A stretch of DNA of 63,130 nt, the filler included, from Dugesia japonica (Eukaryota), in assembly GCA_001938525.1 (NCBI GenBank). It is 5 parts of 5 records of this genome, joined end to end, with 100 filler letters (N's around TTAATTAATTAA, not from the genome) between each part and the next. Parts side by side here need not be neighbours in the genome. Positions count along the whole stretch, not along the records: positions 50,689 to 63,130 come from MQRL01612606.1; 4 more parts are not named here. The stretch is one strand, 5' to 3'. Both the position numbers and the translations under genes were made by a program. Position 1 is the stretch's first letter; every line of letters starts with the position of its first letter. Shown piece by piece: positions 18,450 to 62,454 of this stretch. Below the pieces are notes generated by a model. That model was not told the origin of the DNA. It made no database searches and saw only the letters and a list, made by a program, of their open reading frames with translations.

Positions 18450-18461
18450 TTAATTAATTAA
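18450..18461. other. Artificial scaffold linker TTAATTAATTAA (also 27293-27304, 38826-38837, 50633-50644)
   Basis: Identical 12-mer with stops in all six frames, isolated between N runs four times. Confidence 0.9.
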
Positions 18462-18505
18462 NNNNNNNNNNNNNNNNNNNNNNNNNNNNNNNNNNNNNNN
18501 NNNNN

Positions 18506-19902: not shown

Positions 19903-19911
19903 TATTGGATT

Positions 19912-23300: not shown

Positions 23301-25679
23301 CTACTCGTGTCGCTTTTCTATCACTTGGTAAGGTCCAATAAATTTTTCTTTATTTTTATTGCCCCCTTCACTTCTAACTAATACCCACTGTCCAACCTGA
23401 AAGTGTCTTCGTGTCATGTTCTTCATTTCCTCATCTTTATTGTTGTTTTCGTCTGTTTTCCCGCCTACTTTCCGACTGATGCATCTTCTCATTATTAGTT
23501 CCGCTGGACTCCTCTGAGTTGTTTTCTGCTTCGTTGCATTTATCGCGAATTCCACCTCAGGTAATATCTCNNNNNNNNNNNNNNNNNNNNNNNNNNNNAG
23601 AGTTGCATTTATCCATTCTCTTACCATTCTGAATTGCCGCTCTATTTGGCCATTCGTTTTGTGATGATACGGACTTGAAGTCTGTAATTCNNNNNNNNNN
23701 NNNNNNNNNNNNNNNNNNNNNNNNNNNNNNNNNNNNNNNNGACTCCTCTGAGTTGTTTTCTGCTTCGTTGCATTTATCGCGAATTCCACCTCAGGTAATA
23801 TCTCGGCCCAGTCTATCGTTTTTCTTTCTCGTAGAGTTGCATTTATCCATTCTCTTACCATTCTGAATTGCCGCTCTATTTGGCCATTCGTTTTGTGATG
23901 ATACGGACTTGAAGTCTGTAATTCTATCCCCAAATCTGATGTAAAATCCTTCATAAGCTTGGATTCAAAAATCCTGCCACAATCTGTTCTTATCATCCTC
24001 GGGCAACCCCACTTCAATACCCACTGGTTCATAATCGCTTGTTGTACCGTAATCGCTCATTGCACGTGATCCATACGCAATAACCCTCTCTCTACCCATA
24101 TCGTCAGTCTGGGATAAAACAGCCCCAATTGTATCAAAACTAGCATCTGTATTCAGTGTAAATTTATTGTTCAAGTCAGGAAATGCTAGTTTTGGTGCCG
24201 TCATTAACGCAACTTTCAATCCTTGAAATATTCCTTCCAATTCTTCATTCCAAATCAATTTAGTATTACCCGCACCGCTGCATAATTGTTCCAACTTTCT
24301 AGATTTAGCCGCATAACCTATAATAAATTTACGATANNNNNNNNNNNNNNNNNNNNNNNNNNNNNNNNNNNNNNNNNNNNNNNNNNTTAGCCGCATAACC
24401 TATAATAAATTTACGATAATAGTTACAAATCCCGAGAAAACTGCGCATTTTCTTCACAAAGTTTGGTCTACCAAACTCCTTAATAGCTTCGATTTTTACC
24501 GGATCCGTTTGTATACCTTTCGCGCTCACAATATGTCCTAGAAATTTAATTTCTTGTTTTAGAAATTCACACTTCTCCGGATTAACTCTTAACCCCGCAT
24601 CCATGTTCCGTTTCAATACTTCATCTACTATAATGTAATGACTCGCTTCATCCTTTGAAAAAACTAATATATCGTCAAGGTATACTCCTTCCCTTCGGAT
24701 TATTTATCTTTTTCCCAATCATCTCCTGAAATGTGCCAGGCGCTGCTGCTATTCCAAATGGCATCCTAGTAAAACAGTATTATCCGTGTTTTGTCGAAAA
24801 AGCGGTTTTCTCTTGAGAATCCTTTTCTAGTTCTACCTGGTAATATGCATTATCCAAATTGATCAAGCTAAAATATCCATTCCCGTGTAACGCGTCCAAC
24901 ATCTCATCCATATTTGGCATAGGAAATGCTTGTCTTTCAGTTATCGCATTTAATCTTCTAAAATCCAAACACAGCCTGATATCCTTTTTTTCTTTCTTCC
25001 AGATACATACTAACGGCGCATTCCAAGCTGAATTACACTTCCAAATAATTCCATTCTCCATCAGGTTCCGAATCTTCTCTTCAACATGATTTTCTAGGTG
25101 TAATGGAATTCTATATGGTTTCACTCTGATTGGCTCTTCATTTGTTACAATTCTATGTTTAGCCAAATGAGGACAACCCACATCCCATTTCGACGCCATA
25201 AAAACATTTACTCTCCTCTTGCAAATCGCTTGTAATTTACTTCGATCTACAATACCTGTCGTTTTTTTCACTCTTTCCCATCTATCTACTTCTGCCGCTT
25301 CTATACCCAATCTTGCTTCAATGTTTTCTATCAATTATCGCCTGCCAATTTCTCTATTTGCTTTGCTTTCTCTTTTAAGTTGAAACCCAAAAATGTGTTG
25401 AAAATTTATTCCCCCAATAACATCTGGATACACACTTTCAGCTACTATAAATTCAACTTCTGCTCTTTTTTCTCCCAGCTTAACTTCCAATCGTATTTTC
25501 CCTTTAGTATTTAAGCCACTACCATTTGCACAATGTAACTTTAACCCACTAGGTTTTACTTTTACTTCGGGCCATCCAGTATACATCACAACTCCACCAA
25601 TAATTATTGTTATACTCGGTCTGCCCTGCATTTTATCGAAACTGATTTCTACCTGTTGACCTCCTGACAAAACTCCCAC
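23301..25679 (-). pseudogene. Gypsy pol (protease, RT, partial RNase H, integrase), fragmented
   Basis: DVIGGINF, RLCLDFRRLN, YLDD, FLGICNYYRKFI, LNTDAS, IRTDCG, SPYHHKTNGQIER, GPY. Confidence 0.92.
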
Positions 25680-25792
25680 CCACTCCTCAACATTAATCGC
25701 ATGAAACTTCTTTTTCTTCAGAAAACTATATATTTTCTCATGGATTTTCGCTCTATTTTTCCACTTCTCTACTCCATGAGGACCTTCCTTGA

Positions 25793-26533
25793 TTAAATTT
25801 TCTGATAAATGGCTTCAACCACTTCCACCCTTAGCGGAGCCCTCCCATTTGAGTACAGTATATCTGATCCATGTTTGCTTATCTCATCATCTCGTCGATC
25901 ACCTTTTTCTTGTGTTTCTACTGCATTGAAATAACCAAACCGATTTCTCTGTTTCTTTTTTCCATTTTGTCTATCTTCCANNNNNNNNNNNNNNNNNNNN
26001 NNNNNNNNNNNNNNNNNNNNNNNNNNNNNNTGTGTTTCTACTGCATTGAAATAACCAAACCGATTTCTCTGTTTCTTTTTTCCATTTTGTCTATCTTCCA
26101 TTATATTTCTTCCTTTATATTCTCGGCACACTGATGCTCTGTGACCTGTCCTACCACATTGAAAACATCTCTCTTTCTTACACTCTCTGCTCATGTGTCC
26201 CATATCTCCGCATCCAAAACATCTCTTTTGTTCTCTTTGTGAGCAATCTCTACTTAGGTGACCTCGTCGTTTGCATGTCCAACAATCTCTATCCTCGCTT
26301 TTGATACACTGTGCTCTCATGTGACCTTTTTTATGACATCCCCAACATTCTATCTCTCGTCTTACGTCTTTACCATCTATTTGTCGAGTATCTACTCGCC
26401 TTGGTTCCATTTTCTGTGTACTCACTACTCTCGCGTAGCTACTTATCATGTTAATTTGCTCCCTTTTCTTCTCAACTCGATCTAGTAGAACTAGTGTTTC
26501 CTTAATTTCCTCCGGAGTTTCTAACTTCCACAA
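25793..26533 (-). pseudogene. Gypsy Gag C-terminus with four CCHC zinc knuckles
   Basis: CWGCHKKGHMRAQC, CWTCKRRGHLSRDC, CFGCGDMGHMSREC, CFQCGRTGHRASVC. Confidence 0.9.
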
Positions 26534-28347
26534 TACTACCTCTTCCTTTACTTTTCTGTTTTCAGACCCTCATACCAGCACCTTAGCAACTAACTTCTCC
26601 TTTGTGAAATCTTTATTCTTAAATATTCCGTCCACCATAGATTATACCGTCTTGATATATACATCATTGTCCATATTATCCCGTTTCAAATTTACCAAGT
26701 TCTGTAACTCGTGAATAATATCTTTTTCTTTTTCGAAGGCCAATCTCAAACGTGCTGAAAGCCATCTGTTTTCTTCGCTGTCTTAACATAATCTTCTACC
26801 AAATATCTCATCGAGAAGGCATAAAACCAATCTTTCTTGTTCTTTTTTTTTGAAAAATTCCTTTCGTATCGAAAAATAATTCGCATATTTTAATAAATTT
26901 TTCAAAGTCATTGTCTTTGTCATATATCTTAAGTATTAATCGCTCGGTAATGGAGTCAGTGTTTACCGCTGCCACCATGTGAGGCATACAAACCTCCAGA
27001 TTTGCTAAATTTGAATCTAGCATAACAACTAAAATTATTTATCAAAGTTTTATTAACTTCAATTAAATTTACAACCTTTCTAAAAAATGTTACCGAATAA
27101 AATTTACAATTTAATAAAACTTAACACAGTTACAAGTAATTACAACAATTAACAAATTACAATAATTTCTTACAATTGATCTGCAACTCTTAATTACCCT
27201 AAAAATTGTTATTTAAAATTAACACTTTTTTATATATTTTTTGGAATANNNNNNNNNNNNNNNNNNNNNNNNNNNNNNNNNNNNNNNNNNNNTTAATTAA
27301 TTAANNNNNNNNNNNNNNNNNNNNNNNNNNNNNNNNNNNNNNNNNNNNTTATTGAAACTATGAAAATGAGAAATATATTTTAAAATGTTAAGATGAATTT
27401 TCACCATGACCAAATTGTGAAAATTAATTCAGTTTTATAATTGATATTTAGAATATTAATGAAATAGTATTTTCATGAAAATTTCTCATTTTCATAAATA
27501 AATAATTTTTTATTTAAGTTACTAAATTAATATTACAAATCATATAAATATTTCAATTTTATAAATTCAAATGAAAGTAATAAATTCTATAAAATTTCTT
27601 AAAATTAAAATAAAATTATTTTTAAAAATTTAATTTAATTTTCAATGGAATAATTTTTGAAATTTAACATTTAAAATAAATTATTCATTGCGATATTTTA
27701 AAATAATATCGACTAAATGACGAAAGAAATGAATTAATTTTATTGATATATTTAAAATATCATTAAATTTTAATTTTATCTGTAACTGATAAACATTTAA
27801 CAAATTCATAAATCTTAAATTTTAGAAAATACCTGGAAAATTCTCTGGGTAAAAGTAAAAATTTTAATTCCGGTGATAAATAAGTAAACTGCCAAATATT
27901 TTCTTATTTAATATATTATATTTAATATCTTTAGGAAACATTCTATTTATGAAATATTAATATTTGATAATTTTAACACAACAGTTTTTAACATACTTTT
28001 TAATTATATAAGTCAATATGATTTATTCATTTATACAAAAAAATAATTAACTTATATTAGAATTAATATAAAAACATAAAACTGCACTAATTTGTCATTT
28101 ATTTATCATTTATATCAATATTAAAACCTATTATAATTTTTTTATTTTCCAAATAAAATGAAAGTTATAAATTAAAAGTTCTTTACGTTTGTAAATAAGA
28201 GATTACAGGCATCAGAGTCACGATAATTCTATTGTTAAAATTTGTATTAAATTTTTAATAATAAATGATATGTATGTTAATAATGCAGTACATGTAAAAT
28301 AAAACTTATTAATACAGTTTGAAATAAAATTTAGCATAATGTCAGAG

Positions 28348-43990: not shown

Positions 43991-45430
43991 AAATTTTATT
44001 TCAATTATTTCAAAAGACATGGTGTGGAAAAATTGAATTATCCAATAAAATCAGCATTTGTAAAATCACCAAATAGGTTTCGTTGTAATTTTCTAATAAG
44101 TTTTTGATTTTCAATTTTCNNNNNNNNNNNNNNNNNNAATTTTCTGACAAAATTGTTGTAATTTATTAATTCATTTTAATTTATTTATTATTTAGATCTA
44201 GTAAAAAATAATCTCGATCTCAAACCAAATTAAGTTTAACTAAATATTTTGAGTAAAAGTTTATTACTTGTATTTTTCAATTGATATTAATAACTTTGGG
44301 AATTTCTCAACCATTACAGTTAAAATATTTATTATAAATCTATAAATAAATCCACAAAATAATTCATGTACAATATAAGGCCCGCGATCTAAATTCATGA
44401 AAAATCTAAAATGTATTATTTTATTGAAATATAATTCTATACAATCAATATTTTACAGATTTACAAAAATCTCCTCCAAAATACTAGCTGTAAAATGACA
44501 TTTTAATAGTGGTATATTAAATTTCTCAAGTTATAATATAATATCAGTGATTGATAATATTTGGCCCCGAAATTTTTCCATGCATGGACTGCAACATTAA
44601 TTTAAACTAATTATGCGGCTATTCTTGAAATAAATTGTGCATCCCTGCTATATTAAATATTAAAAAAATAGTGATTAATAATATGAATCAATAATATAAT
44701 TATATGTTTATAAATGGAAAAATATTATTTATAGAAATTCTATGAAATAATAAATCATAATTTGTTTTTATAAAAACTAGTGTTTATTGAAAAATTTGTT
44801 GAAAGAATTTGAAAATAAATTAATTAATTCTTGAATATTATTACTAAAAAATTCCATTTTTTTAAAATATAAATCTCTACATTAAGTTCATTTAAGATGG
44901 AAATATCAGAAAGAACTCTACTGCAATTATTATTTTCAGGCTACAAGCGAAATCATACATAGTTTACATTTATTATTTCATTTCTCTGTGAAATTGTTTT
45001 TAAAAATAAAATTTGGCATTATGCTGAATCGGTCATAATATTTTGGCAATAATTTATATATTTAATTACATTTAAATGAAAACAATAATTTTTTCCTAGA
45101 AGTGTTCTGAAATATTTTTTCTCAACAAATAAATAATTGAATTTTTTTTTGAAAGAATTTTTATAACCTAGCAATAATATTTTCTTAATAATTAATTAAA
45201 AAAAGAGTATTTAAGAAAAATAACCAAATTAGATTACAAAACCGTTTTATCATAAAATGAAAAAAATTTTCAAATACATTTCTACGTTGTCTAAAGAATT
45301 TCATTTTTATTAATTTTTTTCAAAACAATTAAATCATAAATTTATTTAATACTAAATAGTTTAATAAGCCTGTTAAAAGTTATGTCAACAAAAAATTTTT
45401 TTGAAATTTTCATTATTATTATTATTATTA

Positions 45431-45483
<53 letters not shown>

Positions 45484-45641
45484 NNNNNNNNNNNNNNNNN
45501 NNNNNNNNNNNNNNNNNNNNNNNNNNNNNNNNNNNNNNNNNNNNNNNNNNNNNNNNNNNNNNNNNNNNNNNNNNNNNNNNNNNNNNNNNNNNNNNNNNNN
45601 NNNNNNNNNNNNNNNNNNNNNNNNNNNNNNNNNNNNNNNNN

Positions 45642-45710
<69 letters not shown>

Positions 45711-45933
45711 TAGGGTAGAAAAAGTACGGCTGGGGAAAAACAGCCATCTGGGGTCCCCTTAAAGAATTTAATCTAATGTCCCTATTTAGATTTTCGGTAT
45801 AGAGCGGTTGACCTCCATTTTGATTTGAGGCGCACACTCGTATACCTTTAGTTCGAGTTCAATATTTTTCCCTTGTTAAAGTTAAGCCGATTAATTAATA
45901 AACTACTAGAACTAAGATTTATTTTGCTACATG

Positions 45934-46296
45934 TTACATAAGCTCGAGAGCACTCGGGTCTAACCACTATGTAGGTTTCTCGTCAACAAAGCCGAATGTG
46001 GCTTCGTCCTCGTTGTTGTCCCAACGAATCTACTCTTCATTTCCTGGTTGTTTGGCTAAGTCATCTATTTATTTTTGTAAGAAGTCGATTTTGTGTTGTA
46101 ATAATTGCTTAGCCTGCTCGGCTAATTCACCCTGTTTCTTTAGTATAGCATTCATTTTTATAATTAACTTATTTTTCTGGGACAGGTGCTTTAAGAGAGC
46201 CTTTTCGTTTCGTCTCTTAATGTGGCGTTCTAATAACAGTTTTTGAATGAGTCGATGGCATCTGCGCAAGCTATTAGGTAATTGGATTCGTGGCAC
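45934..46296 (-). pseudogene. Element ORF D (basic/coiled-coil plus acidic-aromatic tail), copy 1
   Basis: 363 nt, gap-free alignment to 60423-60785; three copy-specific stops; starts at TTTCATTTCAG|TG. Confidence 0.75.
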
Positions 46297-46455
46297 TGAA
46301 ATGAAAAATTATAATTAGTATCGATGACAGTTTAAATTACAGTTATCTTTTAATGACAACTAGAAATTAGTTCAGGTAAACATAATTGAATGAAACCAAA
46401 CTATTTCAATTTCAAAAGGAAACTTTTATTTACAACATTGGTAGTAACGAACGAA

Positions 46456-46784
46456 TCACGGCCGCAAAGTTTGGGTGCCTTTGTTACTCATAAGGAGTTC
46501 TAGAGGCATGACATTTTTTATTATCTCGGTCATGAAGGGACCGGATCATCTCCGCAAAAGACTCAATTTTTGCTTCCACAAACGTTCTTGCGCGTGATAG
46601 GCCTCGCCTTCCTAAAAGCTACACATATTGCCTTGTATCTTTTAACTTTACTTTCGGCCGACGCGGTGTCCACCTCCGAGCGTCTTTTTGCCAGACAGTA
46701 GAGGTCCCATGTCATCTCGGGATCCTCACTGCTTTCTCTGATTTTCTTCGTTGGGGCCGTAGAGCGGTTAAGAGAGGGATGCAC
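46456..46784 (-). pseudogene. Element ORF C (helical, ends NKGTQTLRP), copy 1
   Basis: HPSLNRSTAPTKKIRESSEDPEMTWDLY...ESFAEMIRSLHDR...KGTQTLRP* with frameshifts; starts at TTTTATAG|TG. Confidence 0.75.
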
Positions 46785-46973
46785 TATAAAATGAAGTTTA
46801 TTGATTAATATTACTAAAAGTAGACCAATTCATTATAAAGGAAACCATGGTACATTTTAGTTTACCCTAGAAGTAATTTAGAGGTCTTGACGCAAATACT
46901 TATTACTGAGACGATTAAAATGATTAACATCATTTATTAAGATACTAAAGCCAATCAAATAACAAAAACGAGT

Positions 46974-47399
46974 TCATGCGTTAATTGAAGTCGAGCCTAC
47001 ATTCTCATCATTACTGCTATCGGATGTGTTCCTTATGTTCCATAAATTATTATGAACAAAAGCCGTTAAATTGTAACTAGCAGGGAGATGACTCGTGACG
47101 ATGCCCACGAATGATGGACCTTCGAGCCATTCCCGGGTGATCTGTGGTTCTCTGCTAGCACTTAACTGGTTAGTTGTAATTAAATGGTACACTGCACGCT
47201 TGCGGTCAGGCCCGTTCCAGGTATAATAGGTGTGACGTTCGTTCGCAACTCATTCTCTTTCCTCCTCTGCAGTTTTAAACGACACATTGGCTCTACTTAC
47301 TAGGACACCGACATTTTGATCGTACAGATTTTTATATCTCTTAAAAACAATACGACCGATCCTTTTGTCAAGCAAAGTTTCCCACTTATAGTTCACCAT
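46974..47399 (-). pseudogene. Element ORF B (about 141 aa, unknown), copy 1
   Basis: MVNYKWETLLD...ANERHTYYTWNGPDRKRAVYH...PQITREW...NLTAFVHNNLWNIRNT; one in-frame TGA where copy 2 has TGG. Confidence 0.75.
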
Positions 47400-47509
47400 A
47401 AAAGTAAAATGGTAACTATTTATTAACATCGAAATTCACAATAAAACATTAATGTAATAAAAGATTCAACTAACAAGGTAACTGGTTTATTATTTATTTT
47501 ATAGAAACA

Positions 47510-47709
47510 TTAATTAGAATATTTTCGGTTTTTGGCATCTATGTCTACCTGAAAATTCAGTAGAAACATCTCGACGAAACACTGGAGGTCTGTCTCATCG
47601 GTATGTTCCACTAAGGAGGGAACTACAAGTATCCGATCAGTTGTTTCAGTCCGGCGGTCTTACGCTGTCTCAAAATCGTGCAAAGTGCCCTCTTTAATTC
47701 TGCGAGCAT
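47510..47709 (-). pseudogene. Element ORF A (about 60 aa, unknown), copy 1
   Basis: MLAELKRALCTILRQRKTAGLKQLIGYL...VEHTDETDLQCFVEMFLLNFQVDID, homologous to 59000-59182. Confidence 0.7.
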
Positions 47710-50700
47710 AATCTATAATTGGGTGGTTGATTAAGATCAACCCATTCATATAGTTATAATGAAAATATTGAAACTTATGGGAAGATCTATAGGTACTCGT
47801 AGGTATCTTAATGACGGCAAATAAACGATAGCGATGATAATGACAGGCTATAAAGTAGAATTAACCACCTTGTCGAAAATTCTAATTATACTGATGATAA
47901 CGATAGAGACCGGAATTACGTTACCCTCAAAATTAAGAAGTTTATAGTGCTTTTGTCAATTGATATGAACCCCAAGATGATTAATCAAATAACTATGCTA
48001 AAAATCCATAAGTATCAGTCGTGCAACTACTGTTATTAGTAGAGGTGATGGCAATGATGCTAATGATTGTAATGGAATTATGCCTTATAATAATAATATG
48101 ATCGTCAACAATAACAACCATAATGACAATAACCGTGATGAGATTGGTGATCATAAGGCTCAGAATCATGGTAATTTTATTAGTAATAGTATTGATAGTT
48201 TTCATAAAGATAAGGAATTTAGAATTAACGAAAGCGGCATCACAAATAACACTTCTAATAATATTACCAATAAATATAGTAATAACTAGAGAATGAGCCC
48301 TACAAAAAAATAGTAATAATATTGGTCAAGATGTTAGAATCTGAAGACGTAAATAATCAGGAAAACAGCAATAGAGAAAGCAATACTAAAATTTCACTAA
48401 TTTTCCTAATATTGTTATATATAAGAAAAGGACTAATTTCTTGGTAATAGCAAATAAAGGTCAATTCATTATTAATAACAGCTTTAGCGTTGATACCAAT
48501 TTTACCATTAATAATATAATAATGACTGTCGCCTTGATGATAGTAAGTCGCATAATAGCCCTAATAATAACAGTAAACGCGTTCATCATAATATGGTTGG
48601 CCACAATAATTAGTATGATAATAAAATTATTAATATCGATAATCATAATGATAGAAAAATTATACAATGACATTCGTATGATAATGAGAATAATTATATC
48701 GTACTAATAATAATGACTATAAGGAAAATAAGAATTTTAATTATATGATGATAATTTTTCTTATAACCCATAATGGCAATCATTAAGTTAGTACGACAAG
48801 ATTACTAATTATGCCACTTACAACAATTCTCAATGAAAAACTACTTATATTCTTATATCACCGACAATTGCATCATTTTGATCCTATACAGACAACCATG
48901 GAAAAAACTACTTATTTTATTAATGAGAATTCGGAAAATCAATTCTATCCTCGTGGGTAAAATGAGCTAGTGAAAATTGCGATACTAATGTTGCCGGCCA
49001 TATTCTTAAACAACTATCATCGATTAACTACTATCCTCTTCACTGATGACTCAATGCACCACATATTTATTTCGTGAAATTAGTTGTTTGGATGTAGATT
49101 GTTATTATTAATCACCATTGAAGAGAGTTGAATACCTTAGCTTGTAGATAGTTTTAGCAGAAAATTTTTAATGAACTTCAGTTAGGATTTATGATCCGTG
49201 ATTATCAACTCTCGAAAAAAAATTAATATAGTACTCGTCAGATTTGGATTTATTAGTGTTAAAAGTTGCATATGAATCCATTCATATCACCCAATAGGCG
49301 ATTAAACTGCTGTTCAGATATCATTGGTATATTATGGATTTATGACAGAACAGATCGCAAGATGGAATTAAAGCTGTAAACAATTATTGCAGAAAACCTA
49401 AATTGCCAGTTGTTGATTTTAATAAAAACATTTCATTCATTCCTTTATCTTTTCATTTTTTCTTATTTAAAAAGAATAATTTAAATATTCAATCATAATT
49501 AATGTATATATTTTTTCGATTATAACACATATGTAACATATATAACTACACAGTTAAGAAAACAAAACATTTTTACTTGTTTCAAAAATATCTTTAGATA
49601 TTCTACAACGGGTATCCCTCGGCTTTTCTTTTTTAGTGAATTATGAAATGTCCCTGGTATTGGTAGTATTTCGTTTTCTTTCTGATTCTTTTTTTTAACT
49701 ATAATCAGTACGGGTTGAATCACCACTAATATTACTATTTTATTCGTCCAAATATGGCAACAGATTTTTTTCCAAAATGAATCTCTGAATACTGCAGTTA
49801 TTTGATTACCACTACGTTTTCTTGTTCTCAAAATAATAATGCGATTCACTAGAATTGGTATTTTTGATAAAAGTTAGTTTTTTTGCTAAGTTTTTCTCGA
49901 TGCTTTTATAGTTTTTCTCATGCATCCCAGCTATCTCCCTGCTGACTGGTTATTTTTATTTTCAGCTTCTTGTTTTTCATTAGTTTTTGGTACAAAATTC
50001 TACAATTTTTTACCATTCTCTGCTACACTATTGGTGCCTATTTTTGGAGAACCATGTGGTTTTTCATTCTTTGTTTTAATTTTCTTTTCTGGTCTCTTAT
50101 TCGCCCATTCTTTCAACCCTTGTAGAAACCCTCCTGATGATGATAAGGTTTTCTGGTTGCGAAATCCTATTGCTACTTGTCATTTTCTTTTCGACGTTTC
50201 TTGCTACAGGTTCCTGTGATTCTCCTGAGTAGAGTTAATCGACCAAAACTGATTTTTGTCTAATTTTAATTCTTTTTTGTGGTAAATTAATTAATTTTCC
50301 TTTATTAATTAATTATTATTTTCTCAACCATTTTCTTATTTTTCTTTTTAAGAATTATAATTCTCCTAATTAATAACTTGATTTCAACCACTATTTTACC
50401 CACTTGATGCTTTCTTTCTACATTTAGCTTTTTCACCAGTTTTCGTATTAGTGTAATTATTGTAATTTTCTCCTCATTACTAATTATCTTACTCATTTTC
50501 TTTTTCTAATCTTCTTCTTTACGAATTGGGCTTCTGGCTTTGTTTTTTCTCAAACCGGGTGTTTCACCCCAACATTATTATTATTATTNNNNNNNNNNNN
50601 NNNNNNNNNNNNNNNNNNNNNNNNNNNNNNNNTTAATTAATTAANNNNNNNNNNNNNNNNNNNNNNNNNNNNNNNNNNNNNNNNNNNNTTAATAATTATG

Positions 50701-50775
50701 ATAATAATAATAATAAAAATAATATAGTAAATTTCTAAAAGTTCCAAATAAAAATTCTGAAAATTATCCTATTAC

Positions 50776-53700
50776 CTTCTATCATACTAGTGGCCAAAGC
50801 TTCAATATCTTGTTCAGATTTTTTTCCTTGCTGATTTAATGACATTTCTTTTACTTGAAGATCGTTTCGTAAATCTACGTTTAAATCTACTTAATTCCTT
50901 ATTTTAAAAAAATGAAACAACACCTCTAGCTTCTTCTTTTAATCGTTGAACAGTTTCAACAAGAGTTTCTTTTTCTTCCAATTCATTTTCCAAAATAGCA
51001 TTTTTCTCAATTGCCTTAAAATGAAAATTTTTATTAAATTATACAGTAAAAAGGTCAAGTGATGACGCAATCAATAATAATAAATTTAATTATTTGTTGA
51101 TCATACAAAAAACAAAAACATNATTATAATAATGCAGTCTAGATATTTGGAAAATGTTTTATTTAGAAAAATCAATTTTCTATCATTTATTTATTTAATT
51201 TTAAATTTAAAATTATTAACTTGTTCTTTGAAAAATAATTTTATCCTTATGAAAGACAGTAGTTACTATCTAAAAATGCTTTCTTGTACCTTTTATCCAT
51301 TGAATCAAATTGTTTTCCAATAGCTCACCTCGTGAAGCGACAAGATACTGGAAGTGCGCTTTATTCTCATGTAGTGTGACAGCTCCAGAAGATATGAAGT
51401 TGTTAGTAAATTTAAAAATGATCATCACCTGGGAATTTCAATATTCGATAAAGTGATGAGTTTGTTCAAAATAAAGTCATTAATAAAGTAAAGCTCGAAG
51501 GTCTGATATTAGGATATACCCCAAGATAGAAATGAATGCCATAACCGCATAATTGATNCAANACNAATGGTATTATCACACTCGAAGAGTTCATTACAGC
51601 GATAAAACTATGGTTGAATGATTAAATAAATTCCAAATACAAAATTACGGTTATCTTTGTTATTTGGAAAAATGATAAATGAGAGGTTTTTCCTAATTAA
51701 AAATTGAACTTAAAAGGCGTATATTGATTTAAAATTTGGGAGCAAAAATAAAAAAATATCGAAATTCCAAATAAAAAAATTATATATAATAAAAACGTTA
51801 TTCCGTCTATCATAACTTCTCCTGATCTCTGGATCAATTCCAAGTTTAAAAACGGAGACTGTAGAGTCCTTGCAGTGTGTGTTTGTAAATTCCCTGTTGG
51901 CAATGTTATAATTGCGGAAGTAGAACGNNNNNNNNNNNNNTATGAATGTCCGATAAGCTGCTATCTTTTGCCATGGAAGCAAAACAGATTGAGAGATCTT
52001 ATCTAAGTCACTGATAACATTTTTTGACCAAACTATTCAAGATATCTTAGAGATGTTAAGAAGTATAATGTAGATTTTTAAAGATAAACCAAACGCTTTA
52101 AAAAAAATTCGTGGAAAATTTTTGGTTTGAAAGATATCAACTGATAAAGGGTTAATTTTTGACTTTTCTTAAATTTAAAGGCTAGAAACGAAAAATATTT
52201 TGAAAAAATTATTGTATTTAAAGTTTTAGCGAACAATATATCATTCACGAAAATCGATTCAGTTGTTTGCGAGATATATGCATAATTTTGAAAATTTTCA
52301 TGTAACCAATTGGTCGTGAAGGCACATGAAAAATCAGAAGTCCTTAAATATTAATGCATCAGTGATTGTGATGTATTTTTTGATAAACAATTTCCTCATT
52401 CCAGCTATGCAATTATATTAATTTGTTGAATAAAAATAGTGAACACAATCAATAACTTCAATTTTTGCTTTTTAATTTGGTTGTTGTTCAAGTTTATAAT
52501 TGTTTTATCCAATCACGTTTAATAATTCAATCGTTTTAGAATTATTATTGTTATTACATTTAAAATTTTATTATCCTATCGAGATTAATTAGCTTAAATA
52601 ATTAAAAATAGAATTAAAATGTGACCAAGAAAAAATCAAAATAATCAATAAAATGAACAGCGTCATTCAATAAGATTAAGAAACACGACTGCGTATAATG
52701 AACGACGATTAGTAGAACAAAATCAAGTTAAAACGTCAATCAGACGACAACCTAATCAAAGATAACGTCATAGATTTTTGAATAATTCATCTTCTGATCA
52801 GATTCAAAATCGATGAATACCAAATACAGAAGCTTAAACCATACATAGTGCTAATGAAACTGCTCAACAAGTATCAAATCGATTTAATGCGTCGATTTAA
52901 TATGAAAATGTTATCTATCATAAAGTTTTGTAATAAACCCTTATATGTTTTTTCATTTCAAAACGAATCTTTACAAATGACACACAAAATAACGGTTTAA
53001 GTTGAAAATATTCAATGAAAGTAAGAATAGCTGGAAATTGCACTCACTAAGCGTTTAAAAATCGAGCACAATTTAAACTTTAAATTAAAGTGTTTTTGTT
53101 CATATACTTAATTCTGAACGGCAACTCAACTGTAAGAAATCAAACGGAGCGATGTCAAGTGAGTCCAATTTCTATTTCATAATAAAAAAAAATTCCAAAT
53201 AAAAAAATTCCTAATAAAAAAGTAATTTCAAATAAAAAATTTCCAAAAAAAATTCAAAAAAAAATTCTAAATAAAAAAAATTCCAAATAAAAAAATTCTA
53301 AATAAAAAAAATTCCAAATAAAAAAATTCTAAATAAAAAAAATTCNNNNNNNNNNNNNNNNNNNNNNNNNNNNNNNNNNNNNNNNNNNNNNNNNNNNNNN
53401 NNNNNNNNNNNNNNNNNNNNNNNNNNNNNNNNNNNNNNNNNNNNNNNNNNNNNNNNNNNNNNNNNNNNNNNNNNNNNNNNNNNNNNNNNNNNNNNNNNNN
53501 NNNNNNNNAAATTTGAAATAAAAGGGTTTTAAAATAAAAAAATTTCTAAAAAAAATTTCATTCCTAAAAAAAATTCAAAAAAAGTAAAAGTAAAAATCGA
53601 AATAAGAAATTTGAAATAAAAGGGTTTTAAAATAAAAAAATTTCATTCCTAATAAAAAAAATTCTAAACAAAATAAATTCCAAATAAAAAAAATTCTAAA

Positions 53701-55066
53701 TAAAAAAATTTCCAAATAAAAAAAATTCTAAATAAAAAAAATTCTAAATAAAAAAAATATAAAAAAAATAATTTGAAGTAAAAATCGAAATAAAAAATTT
53801 GAAGTTTTCTAAAAAAAATAAAATTCCAAATAAAAAAAAATTCAAATAAAAAAATATAAAAAAATTTCAAATAAAAAGAAATAAATAATAGAGTAATAAA
53901 TAATAAAATTTACACCGCTGAAATGTTAAAACAAACACAAAACGCGATTTATTAAATTCACAACAAACCAATAAATAATTGCAACAATGTTCTCACAACT
54001 TATAAATGATTTCTATAAAGCCTTTTAAATGCACCAGTAAATGATTTATGTATGATTTATGATGACATTATAACAAATTATCTAATGAAAAGTTAAATTA
54101 ATTTTCTTACTAAAGTAAAATCCGAAGCAAAAAATGCCTAAAATAAAGATTTATCCCTGAAAATACAGAAAGATTCATTCAAGGAAAAGATCAAAGCAAC
54201 GGAACAATCAGATTTACTAAATTTGATTCAGAAATTTGTTNNNNNNNNNNNNNNNNNNNNNNNNNNNNNNNNNAAATATTCAATATAGCGAGGAAAACGT
54301 GTCCATTGAAAAGTTTTATTTAAATATGCAAAATAGAAAGTTGTATTGTTACTAAATAACATAAAATTAAATGTCATTGAAAGCTGATAGCAGCAATTTT
54401 AATCAATGATTATGATGTAAATAGTAATGTACTTAGATTAGAAATAATTGATTTCAATTACAAAATTATTTATTTATGAAAAATTTCACTTTTAATTATT
54501 TTAATAATTATTTTTGAAAATCAAAATAAATAAATATACTTCACTTACTAAATTTAGTTTCTCTTCAAAATCTTCCAATGACATAACTGTAACTCTAATT
54601 TTTAAACNNNNNNTTTTTTTTTCATTAAAATTATTAAAACCTTTTTGCTCTTTCCAGATCATCATTTGTCTGTTCTAATTCCCTGACATATTTCTGCAAA
54701 GTAGATTTTTCGTTTTTTAATCTAGTAACTTCATCTTGGCAGTCTGACATTTGATGATTCATATTAGTTACAGTTTCTGAGTAACGAATAGATAAGTTCT
54801 CTAATTCAAGACTTAGTTTTTCATTCGCTACCATTAAGTTTTTATTTCTTGATTCATAATCGTTTAATTGCAGCTCTAATTCATTTTCTAAATCCCTGCT
54901 GCTAATTTCAAAATTCTGAAATTCCTCTTGAGTTTCTCTAAGTCTAAAGCATTATTGTTAACCAACCAACAAATAGAAAATAAACAAACTCGTCTTGTAA
55001 AATTTGGGCTTTATTTCTCCAAAATTCAATTTCATCGTCTTTAGAATCAAACTCCGCCTCAGTCAT
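50776..55066 (-). CDS. NudE: NudE/NDE1/NDEL1 dynein regulator; exons 55066-54990, 54943-54641, 54594-54549, 51014-50924, 50874-50776; 3' exons not seen
   Basis: GT-AG joins keep frame: MTEAEFDSKDDEIEFWR...EEFQNFEISSRDLENELE...[48 protein letters not shown]...VQRLKEEARDLRNDL. Confidence 0.93.
53170..53880. repeat. A-rich minisatellite (about 16-17 bp, AAATAAAAAAAATTCY) in NudE intron 3
   Basis: Visible tandem units on both sides of a gap. Confidence 0.9.
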
Positions 55067-55989
55067 TTATATTTATAAATTCAATTTTTTTATTTTTCAA
55101 ATATTGATTAATAGTGAATTTACTAATCATATAAATTAGAAAATTGAAACAAGAAATTATTAGCATTTAAAATTTAAAATGATTAATAAAATTTCAAAAT
55201 AATCGAGAAAATATTAGAATTTAAATTTGTGATAAGCTAATAAGCATTATTTGAAACCCATTTTAAACTTTGAAATAAAAAGTAAATTTTAAACTTTAGA
55301 AAATCAAAGCAAATCTTCAATTTAATTTCAAATTTGAAAACTTCTATATTAACCAACCAAAAGTTTTAAAAAAATAATTTAAACTTTTAAAATTTTAATT
55401 TGAATGATGGAAATTATAAGATTGAAATTATTAATGTTAATACACATGAATAATTTTAAAATATCAAATCAAGCACAATTATACAGTAAAATCTATTAAT
55501 CACAAATACAAAGGGGCCTAAGTTGAGTTACTTCGTTGCATGATGGTTCTTTGTAAGAAAAGTTTTTAACAATGTTATATTTCAACAAATTAGTCTGTTC
55601 ATTTAATAATTAAACAGAGTTTTTGAAGTTTCATTTATATTAATAAAAAAGTGAAAAATATTTTTTACTTAAGAGACAAAAGAATGCATAATGACATTTA
55701 TTCCAAGTGCTACGATTTTCAGGTAGCCAAACTACGGTCTTTTCATTATAGCTTTTCATTATGTATGTCACATATTTTTAAATTTTAATTTTTATACTTA
55801 ATTTTAACTCGGTCAATTGGAATCATCTATTCCTTCTCTTAGATGTATAGCCTGGATAACTATTAGGTAACCAAAAAAGTTCTTTTGGTTTTTAAATAAA
55901 TAATACTCAGATTTTTTATTTCAAAATTAGACATCGTAATTATTAAAGTTTATTAAAATTAAATATATCAATAATATTTTTCTTAATCT

Positions 55990-56270
55990 TTTTGACCATC
56001 TGTTTTCTTAGCCACTTGATCCTTCTAGGTTTAGGGATTCCAGAATAACTTAATAGCACTTGAATATTTCAAAAGAACATTTATATCTGTATCTATTTTT
56101 CTTTAAATTATTTTCCACTTTTACTAGAACTTCTTCCCCTTCAACAAAATTTCGATGTACTCTTTAATCTGATTAATATTCATTTAATTCTAGTGCCGCA
56201 TTTTTTATATTTTTATCAACTGATTCTCTAACTCTATCACTGCTTGTATTGTCATTTAATAAAGTCCATG
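55990..56270 (-). mobile_element. Gypsy integrase C-terminal remnant
   Basis: RVHRNFVEGEEVLVKVE resembles RRHFQVGQWVLVR of the element at 23.4 kb. Confidence 0.5.
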
Positions 56271-58999
56271 AAAGTAGGTAAATGTGAACGCACCAGATCA
56301 CTCCAGCCGAGGGGGAGTGGTCCGAAGCGCTTACATGAACCGTTTGACCTACTGGTTATCAAGGACCACCTTAATTTCAACTCCTAATCTCATATACATT
56401 TGTTACAGTTTTCAATGTAGAACACAATTTCCTTTAGCTTAAAGAGTCACCATTAGCTTTTTTTACTTTACTAACTGGAGTGCATTAATATTCTGCTGTT
56501 ACTAGAAGATCCTTTAGATAGTTAGGGATAACAATGTCTCCCTCCATTATGCATCCGTACGACATTGCATCTAACTTCAATGTCTTACATTACTGTAATA
56601 CTGATTCTAAACCAGTATTTACACACTCAAAGTCTTTATATAGTGCTGGGGCAAAACACCCGACTAAGAAGGGAAACAAAGGCCAGAAGCCCAAACCCTT
56701 ACAGTAATGAAGAAAAATTAGGAAAGAAGGATAATTAAGAAAGCTAACTAAGGTGAAAAGTGTGAAAATTATCAACCAAAGAAAGCAAGCACAAATAATC
56801 ACTATGATTGAATTATGAAGAAAAAATAATTAACCAAAAGTTCAAAAGAAAGGCATGAAGATCTTGGTGAAACGAATCTAACTCACATCGTTCACAGTAA
56901 TCAAAAGAAATTAATAATTCAATAGTAAAAATCAAGAAAATTATTTTTTAAGAACAATTAATTATCTAAGAACTATTAATTAATTTGGAAATAAAATAAA
57001 ATAAATTTAGTCGAAAATTCGGGTTATACTAATAACTTCGCTCAGAAAAACCAGAGAGAGTTCAGGTAAGAAAATCTGAAAAGAAAACGATGAGAAGCAT
57101 TAGAATTTTGCAAGAAGAAACGTTTGCCACCATCAGAGGAGCTACCACATGAGTTGAAAGAATGGGCCAATAACAACCCAAGAAATAAAAATAAAACAAA
57201 GACTTAAACATCACATGGGGGTTTAAAAATAGATGCCAATGGCGTAACAGAAAATGGTGAAAAATTCTTAGAAATCTAAGTCTACACTAATAGAATCACA
57301 GAAATTTAAATTAAAATTAGACTACCAATAGCGATGATGCCGGGTTGCATCCAGAAAGCTATTTAAACCCCTCAAATTTTAGTCAAAATATCTAGAAAAA
57401 AATTTGTATTAGCTGTTATTGCAATTTGCGTAAATCAGCACATCAATTTAAGCGGAATAAATCTGTTAGTAAATAGATCAACCAACTTTCAAGGAAAACC
57501 ACCATTATCGACTAATACAGTGGTCTAGTTATTAGTTGTATTTCATTCAAATCATAGTCAAATTTTAGACAAATAAAGCCTTGTTTAATCCACAAGCAGG
57601 AGAGAAATTACTATTGAAGATTCCGTTATTGTCCTCATTACCGTTGCGACGAAGCGAAAAGATATTTATTTAAAAGCAAGCATGTGTGTTTTACATTGTT
57701 CGATTTATTAATGTAGGAAATGTGGTTAAAATTAATTATCAATAAAATGTATCACTAATTGTTATTTATTTAATCTTTATGATATTTCTATAAACATGTA
57801 TTTACAGATAATGATGACCTGACTGTCAATCACCCAGTGAATATCAAATAAGCTTAGCGCTGTTTCTTTTTCTCCTCGTGTCTGTAACATTTGCTGAATA
57901 AGTTTCAATAATCCGAACTTGTTGCTCACAAACATCTGGCAGGCGATCTAACCACTAGATTACTATTAAATTAAAACGGAATTTCCTCTCCAGATTTAAA
58001 CACACGTGCAAGCCTGTATGTGACCACACTGAATCTGGTTTACACGAACAAAAGTAAAATTACCGCGTTAAACTGCAACTTCATGATATAAAGTGAAACA
58101 CACACTCTTGCCAGATATCTAATGGAATAATGCATACCTGTGTAATGCAACAGCCAGTTAATTGCATAATTTAGTTTCTCTGTTATCACGTCATCAAGTA
58201 CGAATTTTTCATGATGTTCGTCAATTGCCAATCAATAAAGCATGCACCGATAAAATCAAGTTACATCCCTGCAAGTATGCATGGGGTTATTACTGTATCC
58301 ATAATGTCCGATGTTGAATCCATTAGATAACAGTCCATATGACATACATTATTTTTCTTTTTGGATCATTATTTATATTTGACTGCAGTTGTATAGACAT
58401 TGTTTCTGATGAGAAACCAGATTTGTCGCCAACAACGTACTAAGGAAAGAGATTATACTTTTCTTGTGGAGAACTTGATGGGTTTATCTCTGGAATTAAA
58501 TCAGTAATTGTAAGCTCATGTTGGCGTAAATTGATAGTAGTCTAAATAAAATTCTTATGCTACATTAGATCACGATGGTTACCACTAACAACATGATTAT
58601 ATTACTGTCTACTATTATTCGTAACACTCCTTTTCTCCAAATTAAAATTGGTATCAAGATGGGTGTGAGTACAACTAGGATATTTATTGGTATGGATACT
58701 GCTGTTGTTATTTCTACTATTATTGATAATATCATTACTATTATAATTACTAATAAATTCATCAGTATAGCGGACCTATTAATATTAATGTACAAACATA
58801 ATTGATCATTAACATAATCGGAATTAAACCCAGTAACGGCCTCTTGTATAATAACCAACACTAGTCGTATGATTAATGATATAAGTTGTAATGCGAATAC
58901 CATAAGATGCATTTTTGTTTTTATTGTTTTGTATTGCCTTCCGGGGCCGCATCACTCTTATTATCCCATTATAAACTAAGTTTTCGTTCATTTTAAAAA

Positions 59000-59182
59000 A
59001 TGACTGATGAGTTAAAAAGTGCTCTCAAAATAATTCGAAGGCAGNGCAAGGCAGCTCGTTTAAGGCAATTAATCGCCCATTTATTATCGCGCGGTAGAAT
59101 TGAACATCCTGACGAAACAGATCTGTGGTGTTTTGCCGAGATGTTCCCGCGGAACTATAATGTAGATATAGATGAAGAGTGA
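59000..59182 (+). CDS. Element ORF A, copy 2
   Basis: Open 60-aa frame conserved with copy 1 (ELK.AL..I.RQ.K.A.L.QLI..L...EH.DETDL.CF.EMF..N..VDID). Confidence 0.65.
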   Translation: MTDELKSALKIIRRQXKAARLRQLIAHLLSRGRIEHPDETDLWCFAEMFPRNYNVDIDEE

Positions 59183-59325
59183 TCATCCTGTTTTGTGTAA
59201 TTTGGTTTAAATAATCAATTAAATCTTCAGACTGAGTTTATTTTATTTTAATTTTTTTAATTTGCCACATTATATTCTAACGTATTTAAATATTGTTAAT
59301 AAATGTCAAAAATATAATTTTAAGC

Positions 59326-59763
59326 ATGACGCACAAATGGGAAATTTTGCTAGATCGTGCCACGAGTCGAACCGTGTTCAAACTGTATAGGAATCCCCAC
59401 AATAGAGATGCCGGGGTTCTGGTTGACAGAGCCAATCTACTCGTTGAAGATGCAAACGATGAACGCTAGTGGGACGCAAATGAGCGCCACTTGTATTATA
59501 CCTGGAATGGTCCAGATCGAACGAGGGCCGTATATCATGTAGCCCCCCATTGCAACAGTAAACGGAGATGGCATGCCCCAAATTACTCGCGAATGGTACG
59601 AATGACCCTCACTGGTGGGTCCTAATCAACTCCCAATCAACTCCCTCCATTCTCCAATTTAACCGCGTTTGTGAACAACAACCTGTGGAGTATCCGTAAC
59701 ACAGAAAGCAGCGGAAGTGCTGAGAATGCCGACCCCAACCCCGTGCTCGAAACTGTATTGTAA
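59326..59763 (+). pseudogene. Element ORF B, copy 2
   Basis: MTHKWEILLD...ANERHLYYTWNGPDRTRAVYH...PQITREW...NLTAFVNNNLWSIRNT with stops and frameshifts. Confidence 0.75.
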
Positions 59764-59917
59764 CATGTAAGTTTTGCTTGACACTAATAAATAGTCTTTT
59801 CTTAACTTGAGTTTAGTTTTGTTTACTAATTCCGAAATTAATAACAAATTAAGAGCTGTAGGCGACTGAATTTAGAATTATCTTAATTACAGACATCATT
59901 TTATCTTTTTATTCATA

Positions 59918-60277
59918 GTTCATTCCTCACTCAACCGTGTTACCGCTCCAACAAAGAAAATCCGAGTGGATAGCGAAGACCCCGACATGACATGTGAGCT
60001 TTATCGACTTGCTAAGCGTCATTGGGAGGCTGACATCTATACGGCCACAGCCAAAGTGAAACGTTATAAATCTAAATGTATTTCGTTTCGAAAAGAAGCA
60101 GAAGCCTCCCATGCACAGAAGCGGCTGTGGAATACCCAAGCCGAATCCTTCGCCGAAATCATCCGGTCCCTCAATGACCGAGAGAATAAACTGGTTAATG
60201 ATTTCTTGGAATTACGAAAAAGGATACCCCTTAAACCACTGTTGATCGATAAAGGTATCCAAACCTCTCGACCCTGA
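59918..60277 (+). CDS. Element ORF C, copy 2 (acceptor-started terminal exon, ends DKGIQTSRP)
   Basis: Open frame from TTTTTATTCATAG| to TGA, followed by AATAAA about 20 nt later; conserved with copy 1. Confidence 0.7.
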   Translation, partial: VHSSLNRVTAPTKKIRVDSEDPDMTCELYRLAKRHWEADIYTATAKVKRYKSKCISFRKEAEASHAQKRLWNTQAESFAEIIRSLNDRENKLVNDFLELRKRIPLKPLLIDKGIQTSRP

Positions 60278-60422
60278 CTATTTTTTGTATCTGTNAATAA
60301 ATGTATCCTCGCTTTTGTACTGATTTATTTTTTGTCGACTGTCTCTAAATACAGCATTTTCTCACTAGTTAAATGTGTATAATGAATAGTCTATGATCTA
60401 TCTAATAGTTCTTTATTTTTCA

Positions 60423-60785
60423 GTGCCACAAATTAGACTTCCGACGAGTCGACGCCGTTGTCACCGACTAATTACCAAGTTGTTACTAGAGCGTCATCTC
60501 AAACGACAGACTAAACGTGCCTTACTCAAACATCTCGCACAATGAAATAGGCTTATAAAGAAGCGAGATCTAATCGTTAAGAAACAGGGATGTCTAGTCG
60601 AAAAAACGAAACAGCTCCTTCAAAATAAAATCGATTTTTTGAAAAGATATATTGCAGATTTATCTCGCCAGCTCGATAATGCGTCATGGTTACAATGAAA
60701 CGACAATGACGACGAAACTGCNTTTAATTTTTTAGATGATGATTCCACTCAGTGGTTAGACCCGGGTGCTATGGATTTCATGTAA
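60423..60785 (+). pseudogene. Element ORF D, copy 2
   Basis: TTTATTTTTCAG|TG PQIRLPTSRRRCHRLITKLLLERHLKR...KQLLQNKIDFLK...WLDPGAMDFM*; two copy-specific stops. Confidence 0.75.
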
Positions 60786-62454
60786 TATGATATAAAGTAT
60801 AAATTAGTTTTAATGATTTGTTAATTAGTTTTGAGTATAATATAAAAGGGGGAAAAAAGAACCCGAATTAAAGGTGTACGAGTGTGAACCTCACATGAAG
60901 TTGAAGGTCAACCACACTAAATTGAATATCTAATTTAGGGACATTAGATTAAATTCTGGAAGGGGATCCCCTGAGGCCCGTTTTCCCCGGCCAGCGTTTT
61001 CTTTCATCACCAACTCAGGTGTACCCCAACAATAGTAATTATTATCATACATTATCCGTTGGTAAAACTGATTCAAAATCAGAGTATATGACGAATGTTA
61101 GTTTCATTGTTTTAGAGAAATCCCTAAACTCTAAGTTTTTATCTGATGGCTTTGTTTATAATGTTGTTCTGGGTTTGAATCTCCTCATAAATTATCTCAT
61201 GCTTCTCAAAAGCTATTTCCTTTCTAAATCCATTTAAGCAATTTGGACACCATATTGTTTGGATTCTTGTGTCATTTTTATCTCTCTCTATTCATTAAAC
61301 TGTCCAATATAATTACAGCTGTGTAATGGTAGTCGTTACTTTTTTCTAACATCAGCAAATATACCATCTCTCCATCAACCATCTTTGACCTATGGATGAT
61401 ATCTAAATTGAAATGTTTGAAAACATCTTCATCACTATCTTCCACATCGTCTGAACTCCATGAACGAACATTGATTAAAAGTCCTAAATTTTTTCTTTCA
61501 ATTTTTCTAATATTATTAAGTCGCATTGGCATGTATGATTCTTCATAATCATACTCAGACATATATTTTTCATTTTTTGATGGTCTACATCTATTTGATT
61601 GCATATAAAAATACTTAGTAATAGCTAAAATGCTATAAATAAAGCATTTATATTCTCTATTTTGAATGTTAAGAATTGCACTTTTCTTTATCAAATTCGT
61701 TGGTGTTGGTATATAACTATGACCCGACTGAATTCAAGTCCGGAATCAATAAATCAAGTTCAAATGAATATAAAACTAAAAGCGCTAGCAATTGCATTAC
61801 AACAATAACATGAATACAGACTGACAAGAGATCCAAATACTTTAAGTAATTTCGTTTGCTTAATAATTTATTTTAATATTATAATTTCAGTTGTCAAATG
61901 TCATACCGAATAATCACTAGAATATCGAATACATTGGGTTTTAATTAAAAAACTTTAACAATTTATAAGAGTTTTGATTTATAAAATCTAATATAACAGA
62001 GTTATATATTAATAAGAGGAAACTAATTATTTATAAAAATATTTATTCAATCTTTTGAGTTGATTTAATTTTCCATATTGGTTTTACNATATCGTCTAAG
62101 TTTTTGTAACCAATAATTTCACCTGTAATCATTGATTTACTATCTTGAACGTTATCTTCCCCTGATTTGATAAATGTTGTATCTTCAATCTTCATACTGT
62201 TTTNNNNNNNNNNNNNNNNNNNNNNNNNNNNNNNNNNNNNNNNNNNNNNNNNNNNNNNNNNNNNNNNNNNNNNNNNNNNNNNNNNNNNNNNNNNNNNNNN
62301 NNNNNNNNNNNNNNNNNNNNNNNNNNNNNNNNNNNNNNNNNNNNNNNTAAACAATTTAAGAGTCAGTTTTGGATAACTTAGAAATAGATTCCAAGTTTAA
62401 TTTCTTACTGAAATTTATTTGAAATTATTTACATTTTTTTCATTTTATCTGTCT

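Follow-up and report, generated by a model that had tools for sequence, protein, structure and literature searches.

The described systems that come closest to the locus considered here range from adenovirus to giant long terminal repeat (LTR) retrotransposons. The locus is a 4388-bp repeat copy (copy 2) that carries a row of four open reading frames (ORFs A to D) within a 63,130-nucleotide stretch of Dugesia japonica DNA from assembly GCA_001938525.1 (the window), in which a second, diverged copy (copy 1) lies on the opposite strand. In the adenovirus major late unit, one non-coding leader is joined to alternative acceptors and several poly(A) sites are used, and the body exons have their own ATG; adenovirus is an unrelated DNA virus, and the analogy is one of layout only. 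An earlier note on this DNA had likened the locus both to adenovirus late units and to the accessory genes of complex retroviruses. The second likeness holds, in that the unit would work like a complex-retrovirus accessory unit; a retrotransposon LTR is a closer model than adenovirus.

Among retroelements, each precedent covers one part of the layout, as far as the available portions of the papers cited here go. Burro and GYPSM1 are giant, gypsy-like LTR retrotransposons that occur in the AT-rich genomes of planarians and have accessory ORFs (PMC6431247). The available text of that source describes a giant gag-env-pol polyprotein and a total length above 30 kb against an internal region of up to 25 kb, which implies an LTR of several kilobases; it places the accessory ORFs upstream of the polyprotein and holds nothing on LTR genes, splicing, or separate poly(A) sites. 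We liken the present element to Burro by description, without comparison with a Burro sequence, and its membership of that group is unproven. The accessible parts of PMC8532177 and PMC11410931 add nothing on LTR genes. In springer, a Drosophila errantivirus, a spliced subgenomic RNA completes the env start codon at the junction, as is proposed here for ORFs C and D; however, springer env is one gene with an AU|G split, lies downstream of pol, and shares its 3' end with genomic RNA (10.1101/2023.08.03.551782, in part), whereas the present element would split A|UG for at least two genes inside a terminal repeat, and each gene would have a poly(A) signal to itself. In the MDG1 group (412, Mdg1, Blood, and Stalker), the small, selected accessory ORFs sORF1 and sORF2 lie near the 5' end, and a poly(A) site behind sORF1 gives a short message, but these two ORFs are unspliced, have their own starts, and lie upstream of gag rather than within the LTR (PMC11952523, in part). 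Finally, the foamy virus LTR contains promoter, donor, and poly(A) signal, with the donor upstream of the poly(A) signal, and U1 at the major splice donor suppresses cleavage in the 5' LTR; these are vertebrate retroviruses with one poly(A) site, and the portion available of PMC3694450 describes no acceptors or genes behind the donor in the LTR. Each ingredient thus has a precedent of its own. The literature searched yielded no paper that describes the combination, a multi-gene, split-start unit inside an LTR, the original Burro paper and its supplements, which possibly describe LTR ORFs, being outside its scope.

We propose, with a probability of roughly 0.55, that a single promoter serves all four ORFs, with a non-coding leader spliced alternatively to each, that the ATG of ORFs C and D would be made at the splice junction, and that each message would end at a separate poly(A) site. 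Judged by their substitution pattern, ORFs A to D are real genes under purifying selection that have been kept in two distant lineages. Between copies 1 and 2, identity at codon positions 1 and 2 is 0.64 to 1.0, versus 0.26 to 0.52 at third positions, and overall there are about 0.2 to 0.3 nonsynonymous differences per site. Jukes-Cantor nonsynonymous divergence (dN) is 0.08 to 0.35 in all nine segments of ORFs A to D, and synonymous divergence (dS) is saturated or above 1 in each; the codon pattern vanishes in shifted frames. Both window copies are now dead relics: they are decayed, 4.4 to 4.9 kb long, and each contains stops or frame breaks.

The evidence for splicing lies in where the conservation of ORFs C and D begins. 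The earlier note had claimed that it begins exactly at an AG with its pyrimidine tract, where no ATG stands, and always in phase 1, and all four junction motifs are exactly as it gave them, each in phase 1 to the conserved frame (4/4). In copy 1 (minus strand), the acceptors are TTTTATAG|TG CAT at ORF C (first exon base 46783) and TTTCAG|TG CCA at ORF D (first exon base 46295). Upstream of each of the four acceptors, the frame runs into a stop within about 16 codons and has no in-frame ATG. From the 50 nt before the AG to the 50 nt after it, identity between the copies rises from 0.41 to 0.72 at ORF C and from 0.50 to 0.62 at ORF D (windows offset by one base), and a branch-point-like CTAAT precedes ORF D at -22 in copy 2 and -23 in copy 1. 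The codon pattern is more telling than these nucleotide steps. The first 22 codons of ORF C, which lie ahead of its first in-frame Met, have proportions of nonsynonymous (pN) and synonymous (pS) differences of 0.14 and 0.78, and the first 46 codons of ORF D have a pN of 0.22 and a pS of 1.09. By this measure, selection on C and D starts with the first codon after the AG, ahead of any Met. Because the only in-frame Met of ORF D common to both copies is its last codon, its start must come from elsewhere.

Relatives of the two copies point the same way. In a public contig (DNA) run, relatives read AG|TG at acceptor C, as does copy 1, rather than ATG (37 contigs; depth, 554.8 of 563.2). This speaks against the family having a plain ATG at that site; 40 of the 823 rows of that run's variant table were covered, and the ORF D acceptor lies outside those rows. 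ORF A, too, probably follows an acceptor, but in another phase and with an ATG of its own, given the YAG that stands 3 bases before the ATG in all of the depth there (14 contigs), as in copy 1. ORF B has an in-frame ATG in each copy, one codon apart, and the copies have no AG in common at its start. The earlier idea of same-phase alternative terminal exons therefore fits C and D; it does not extend to A, with its own ATG, or to B, whose start context differs between copies. For ORFs C and D, we consider splicing at the conserved AGs to be very probable.

An account without splicing has C and D start at an in-frame GTG, formed by AG-TG and used as a near-cognate codon on polycistronic or separately started RNAs, with the T-tract reflecting spacer composition. 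Three of the four sites have the GTG in frame, T-tracts come cheaply in AT-rich spacers, a strict tract filter missed copy 1's C acceptor, and junction reads were not seen in the RNA runs described below, where depth is zero at the sites. Yet the A before the GTG, the tract, and the CTAAT motif are kept as well, ORF A is preceded by YAG although it has a true ATG, and the spacers are short and, at 0.42 to 0.50 identity, lack promoter-like conservation. We regard this account as quite improbable.

The base that C and D would need to complete their start codon could come from a predicted leader exon upstream of ORF A. On the ORF strand, the longest run without an ATG measures 345 nt in copy 2 and 351 nt in copy 1; in both copies it begins just before a TATA-like box and ends a few bases past a donor-like site. 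The leaders contain no ATG, versus about 3.7 and 5.0 to 5.1 expected (local shuffle P values, 0.008 and 0.001), and a gap as long arises anywhere in the element in 18/300 and 19/300 block-wise shuffles. Only 2 of the 64 triplets, ATG and GGC, are absent from both leaders, with GGC expected 0.8 and 0.9 times. As the leaders are only 0.42 to 0.54 identical, the absence of ATG is largely independent between the copies. The candidate exon ends in A in both lineages, which is the base required for A|TG. The earlier note could not identify a donor; the candidate at 57676 (49576 in copy 1) is new here. Its proposal of a shared leader spliced to each ORF with an A|TG start thus gains an ATG-free leader ending in AA in both copies, beside acceptors that have been kept; the RNA runs described below, which have no depth at the sites, show no junction read. 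A strong donor-like site, CAG|GTAAGA at 57066 in copy 2, aligned with GTA|GCAAGA at 50204 in copy 1, lies inside the conserved non-coding block and could serve transcripts entering from upstream.

The acceptors might also be real without such a leader. C and D would then be terminal exons of the usual kind, in phase 1, that follow a coding exon with an ATG of its own; the donor would possibly lie in A, in B, or in an internal part of the full element, and the TG would be a conserved codon remainder. Any coding leader common to the two sites would agree with their phase of 1, the candidate leader donor is weak, and env of ZAM, Beagle, and idefix is reported to gain a short peptide or a Gag peptide by splicing (10.1101/2023.08.03.551782, in part). 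This arrangement is improbable in our judgment: it makes the same TG after AG in two unrelated proteins a coincidence unless the codon is Met, the ORF A acceptor is in a different phase and has its own ATG, poly(A) signals lie between A, B, C, and D, and the leader region is ATG-free.

Those signals bear on how the messages would end. AATAAA occurs in 7 of 8 post-stop spacers (4/4 in copy 1 and 3/4 in copy 2), with only copy 2's D spacer lacking it. In shuffled spacers, the copy 1 count has a P value of 0.007, at least 3/4 in copy 2 has one of 0.03, and at least 7/8 has one of 3e-4 if the copies are independent. The hexamers that the earlier note placed behind A to D in copy 1 and behind B and C in copy 2 are all present, and its list for copy 2 is to be extended by one behind A, at 59298. 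Behind ORFs B and C, the hexamers lie 18 to 34 nt past the stop, with U-rich tracts after them. The spacers are AT-rich and poorly conserved, as had been claimed (73 to 81% AT; 0.42 to 0.50 identity, versus 0.56 to 0.61 in the ORFs), although the nucleotide contrast is modest. The hexamer after ORF A (59298; 47424 in copy 1) is only about 25 to 28 nt ahead of the ORF B start, so that the bases needed for 3' cleavage of A would also be needed for 5' definition of B, and the two processes would compete.

Separate poly(A) signals could alternatively mark an operon that is resolved by the host's spliced-leader trans-splicing, in which the precursor would be cut at each poly(A) site and a leader added at the next AG. 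The hexamer-to-acceptor distance is fairly constant, at 127 to 154 nt, and such constant spacing resembles that of nematode operons. Trans-splicing and operons also occur in free-living flatworms; however, the flatworm leaders reported all end in ATG, according to the part of PMC12582326 available, and ATG+TG is out of frame with C and D, as the earlier note had held. The first codons of C and D are under selection, and we consider trans-splicing very improbable here.

Returning to the leader-splicing proposal, transcription would start near 57390 and yield a leader of some 290 nt whose last base is A. Splicing from the donor near 57676 would link this leader to the acceptor of A, C, or D, and probably to ORF B as well. 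ORF A would be translated from its own ATG at +4 of the exon, and ORFs C and D from a start codon completed at the A|TG junction. Cleavage at the poly(A) signal that follows each ORF would leave every message with a single protein to encode, and the amount of each protein would be set by splice-site choice; neither C nor D would be translated from genomic RNA that stays unspliced. If the genes are oriented like gag-pol, transcription of the genomic RNA would have to continue past several poly(A) signals in the 5' LTR. By analogy with foamy viruses, U1 bound at the donor could mask the poly(A) sites that lie downstream of it on genomic RNA.

The nature of the element that carries the ORFs is indicated by its ends. 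Copy 2 is bounded by TTTATATAG|TG on the left and CA|ATAGTAATT on the right, its terminal inverted repeat is about 15 bp long and imperfect, and a 4-bp target-site duplication flanks it. It is likely the solo LTR of a giant gypsy-like LTR retrotransposon; this is the simplest reading because TG..CA ends and a duplication enclose no gag, pol, or transposase. Within the window, no gag, pol, primer-binding site, or second LTR is attached to copy 2. Copy 1 keeps only its 5' end, lacks the final ~18 bases, and has its target duplication masked by (AAT)n. The family is dispersed and high-copy: 3949 contigs of one public run match copy 2 plus short flanks. Since these contigs cover all 30 bins and are mostly less than 95% alike, the repeat belongs to a large, old family. 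On either side, copy 2 is bordered by DNA that matches other repeats close to the window start (61059-61723 to 828-1489 at 66%; 56380-56502 to 2455-2576 at 72%), and thus copy 2 appears to have been inserted into older repeat DNA. A polypurine run at 60845-60864, about 170 nt before the 3' end of the element, is followed by conserved stem-loops and is weaker in copy 1. Six frames of the 56900-57370 block were tested for a hidden ORF, which was rejected there and in the 3' tail for want of a clear codon pattern, and an Rfam scan of 45000-62000 gave one match only, below threshold.

TG..CA ends with 4-bp duplications would also suit a non-autonomous DNA transposon with cargo genes, for which Ginger-like elements offer a model. 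The ends do form a short inverted repeat, and gag, pol, primer-binding site, and second LTR are not attached in the window. On the other hand, that inverted repeat is imperfect and no longer than about 15 bp, neither a transposase remnant nor a known family was found in A to D, and AT-rich flatworm genomes are known to contain giant gypsy elements that have accessory ORFs (PMC6431247, in part). We give this identity little credence.

The orientation of the gene row relative to gag-pol is another matter; it is undecidable from copy 2 because a solo LTR cannot tell sense from antisense. The same splicing could therefore operate in the opposite architecture, with the row antisense to gag-pol, in U3, and transcribed from an antisense promoter that lies in U5. 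The poly(A) sites of the row would then be harmless to genomic RNA, and neither a 3-kb U5 nor read-through of four poly(A) signals would be needed. The strand opposite 56644-57400 is very T-rich, and U5 is often T-rich. RNA reads occur in both directions, although read direction says nothing if the library is unstranded. The arrangement can be likened to retroviral antisense genes, and antisense promoters are known in retroviral LTRs (PMC10186651, in part). However, the conserved block, the TATA-like box, and the leader read as a normal U3-R in the ORF direction. We take the antisense arrangement to be less likely than not; it is compatible with the splicing part of our proposal. That the terminal repeat is a self-contained, virus-like transcription unit, with promoter, leader, donor, acceptors, four genes, and poly(A) sites within one LTR and at least two start codons made by splicing, may be put forward only tentatively, at somewhat less than even odds.

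Several observations weigh against the proposal. Three RNA raw-read runs with the same species label, and the contig run, were compared with copy 2. The RNA runs placed 13, 131, and 20 reads on it, of which 13, 118, and 17 were less than 90% alike and nearly all were partial. These reads fall, in both directions, on conserved patches (ORFs A, B, and C, the 5' block, and the tail) and also on both flanks of copy 2. RNA depth is zero over the donor bin and the C and D acceptor bins, and no RNA joint, spliced read, or poly(A) tail was seen in any of the three runs, whose reads come from distant relatives only. Some RNA reads lie at 57016-57319, upstream of the proposed transcription start. The donor matches the consensus poorly in both copies (GCAAGC and GTAAAA), other donor-like sites are shared in position at 57066/50204, upstream of the TATA-like box, and at 57469/49809, inside the leader, and the leader bounds were picked after the copy alignment had been viewed. 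ORF B has no shared acceptor, copy 2 deviates at ORF A (no AG) and at ORF C (TT), and the identity step at ORF D is modest. The strict tract filter recovered 3/4 C/D sites, all but copy 1's C acceptor, among 7 and 10 sites per copy. AATAAA is common, with 15 occurrences in copy 2 and 16 in copy 1, including some inside ORFs C and D. The full-length comparison is limited to two copies, and the identity of the LTR and its direction relative to gag-pol rest on the element ends.

The RNA reads represent, at most, low-level transcription of distant relatives and neither support nor refute splicing. Among the 15 joints listed for the contig run, none is a candidate donor-to-acceptor joint. The index of RNA runs lists no run as containing the stretch, which carries no weight either way. 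Coordinates of all features are given in Table 1.

Table 1. Features of the repeat copies and of the proposed transcription unit, in window positions
Feature	Position	Strand	Remarks
Copy 2, 4388-bp element	56644..61031	+	TG..CA ends; short imperfect terminal inverted repeat; solo LTR-like
Target-site duplication, left	56640..56643	.	ATAG, 4 bp
Target-site duplication, right	61032..61035	.	ATAG, 4 bp
Copy 1, diverged copy	45712..50574	-	~4.86 kb; starts TGTTGGGG; within (AAT)n tract
Conserved non-coding block	56900..57350	+	putative U3 enhancer region; 0.52-0.76 identity per 50 nt
TATA-like box TATTTAAA	57360..57367	+	homologous position in copy 1, TATAAAAG at 49910; putative promoter
Predicted non-coding leader exon region	57368..57675	+	ATG-free in both copies; ends in AA
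Candidate splice donor	57676..57681	+	copy 2 AA|GCAAGC, aligned with copy 1 AA|GTAAAA at 49576; weak match
ORF A	59000..59182	+	60 codons; own ATG; YAG 3 bases before it in copy 1 and relatives, absent from copy 2
AATAAA after ORF A	59298..59303	+	position and TGTTAATAAAT context common to copy 1 (47424)
ORF B	59326..59763	+	~140 codons; broken in both copies; start context unlike between copies
AATAAA after ORF B	59786..59791	+	22 nt past stop, then U/GU-rich tract
Predicted acceptor of ORF C	59900..59918	+	pyrimidine tract plus AG; TTCATAG|TT CAT; AG 59917-59918, first exon base 59919
ORF C	59919..60277	+	118 codons after phase-1 dinucleotide; helical or coiled-coil-like; no known family
AATAAA after ORF C	60296..60301	+	18 nt past stop, then U/GU-rich tract
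Predicted acceptor of ORF D	60400..60423	+	CTAAT, pyrimidine tract, AG; TTTTCAG|TG CCA; AG 60422-60423, first exon base 60424
ORF D	60424..60785	+	119 codons after phase-1 TG; internal stops in both copies
Conserved non-coding 3' tail	60790..61031	+	stem-loops; 0.67 identity; no codon pattern

Searches for relatives of the encoded proteins returned little. Protein searches gave 2 candidates for ORF C (lengths of 64 to 207) and 14 for ORF B (lengths of 39 to 245), of which none passed, longer fused forms being outside the scope of both. A profile of ORF D against 1.84 billion representatives had a single match (E value, 4.8e-5; 22 positions of a 1722-aa protein), which we rejected as coiled-coil similarity. 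Pfam and PHROGs, the only collections against which ORF A was scanned, gave no match above the cut-off for ORFs A to D, the best being BRE1 at 23.5 bits versus a cut-off of 27.9. An Atlas search for ORF C reached a recognition of 1619, below 2300, and returned only unnamed clusters, and the predicted fold of ORF B was unusable (pLDDT, 36). ORF C patterns matched 0 of 293 metagenome stretches; a match in 1 of 31 viral stretches (32 residues, 44%) was rejected as chance, and no related locus for the element was found in the metagenome and viral stretches searched with these patterns. Elsewhere in the window, no paralogue of ORFs A to D was found. The N-terminal part of ORF D is basic and coiled-coil-like and its C-terminal tail acidic; by composition, ORFs C and D look like small helical regulators. 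Upstream of ORF A, both copies contain a low-complexity stretch (58565-58951 and 47990-48710), open for 80 to 128 codons on either strand, Ile/Thr/Met-rich one way and partly Asn-rich the other, with RNA reads of relatives at 58688-58839; it is possibly a decayed fifth gene.

The rest of the window is AT-rich animal DNA rich in repeats, of a composition that agrees with a planarian host. An intact, intronless gene for DOHH (deoxyhypusine hydroxylase; 299 aa) occupies 7662-8561 (+); it is 73% identical to one protein and at most 47% to the others among the 120 matches listed, and the named matches are animal, with flatworms absent among these. A decayed gypsy-like element at 22930-27248 (-), unrelated to the large repeat, has ~250-bp LTRs that are 97% identical and fragments of a zinc-knuckle gag, reverse transcriptase, and integrase. 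Fragments at 18450-21470 (-) resemble, by eye, pieces of a Polinton-type ATPase and integrase and of a Penelope-type reverse transcriptase/endonuclease; four ORFs there had no Pfam match at an E value of 0.001. A degenerate, G/T-rich tandem repeat with strong GC skew lies at 15015-15813.

LTRs are usually regarded as regulatory sequence, and solo LTRs as remnants without genes. If the proposal is true, an invertebrate retrotransposon lineage would have evolved accessory expression in the style of complex retroviruses inside its LTR, and solo LTRs could be protein-coding. A gene whose ATG is present only after splicing is invisible to ORF callers, which may help explain the lack of relatives of B, C, and D in protein collections. 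If the terminal repeat is moreover a self-contained unit, every intact solo LTR, of which the host genome may have thousands, would be a complete multi-gene cassette with no need of gag-pol, able to supply regulatory proteins in trans or to be domesticated by the host.

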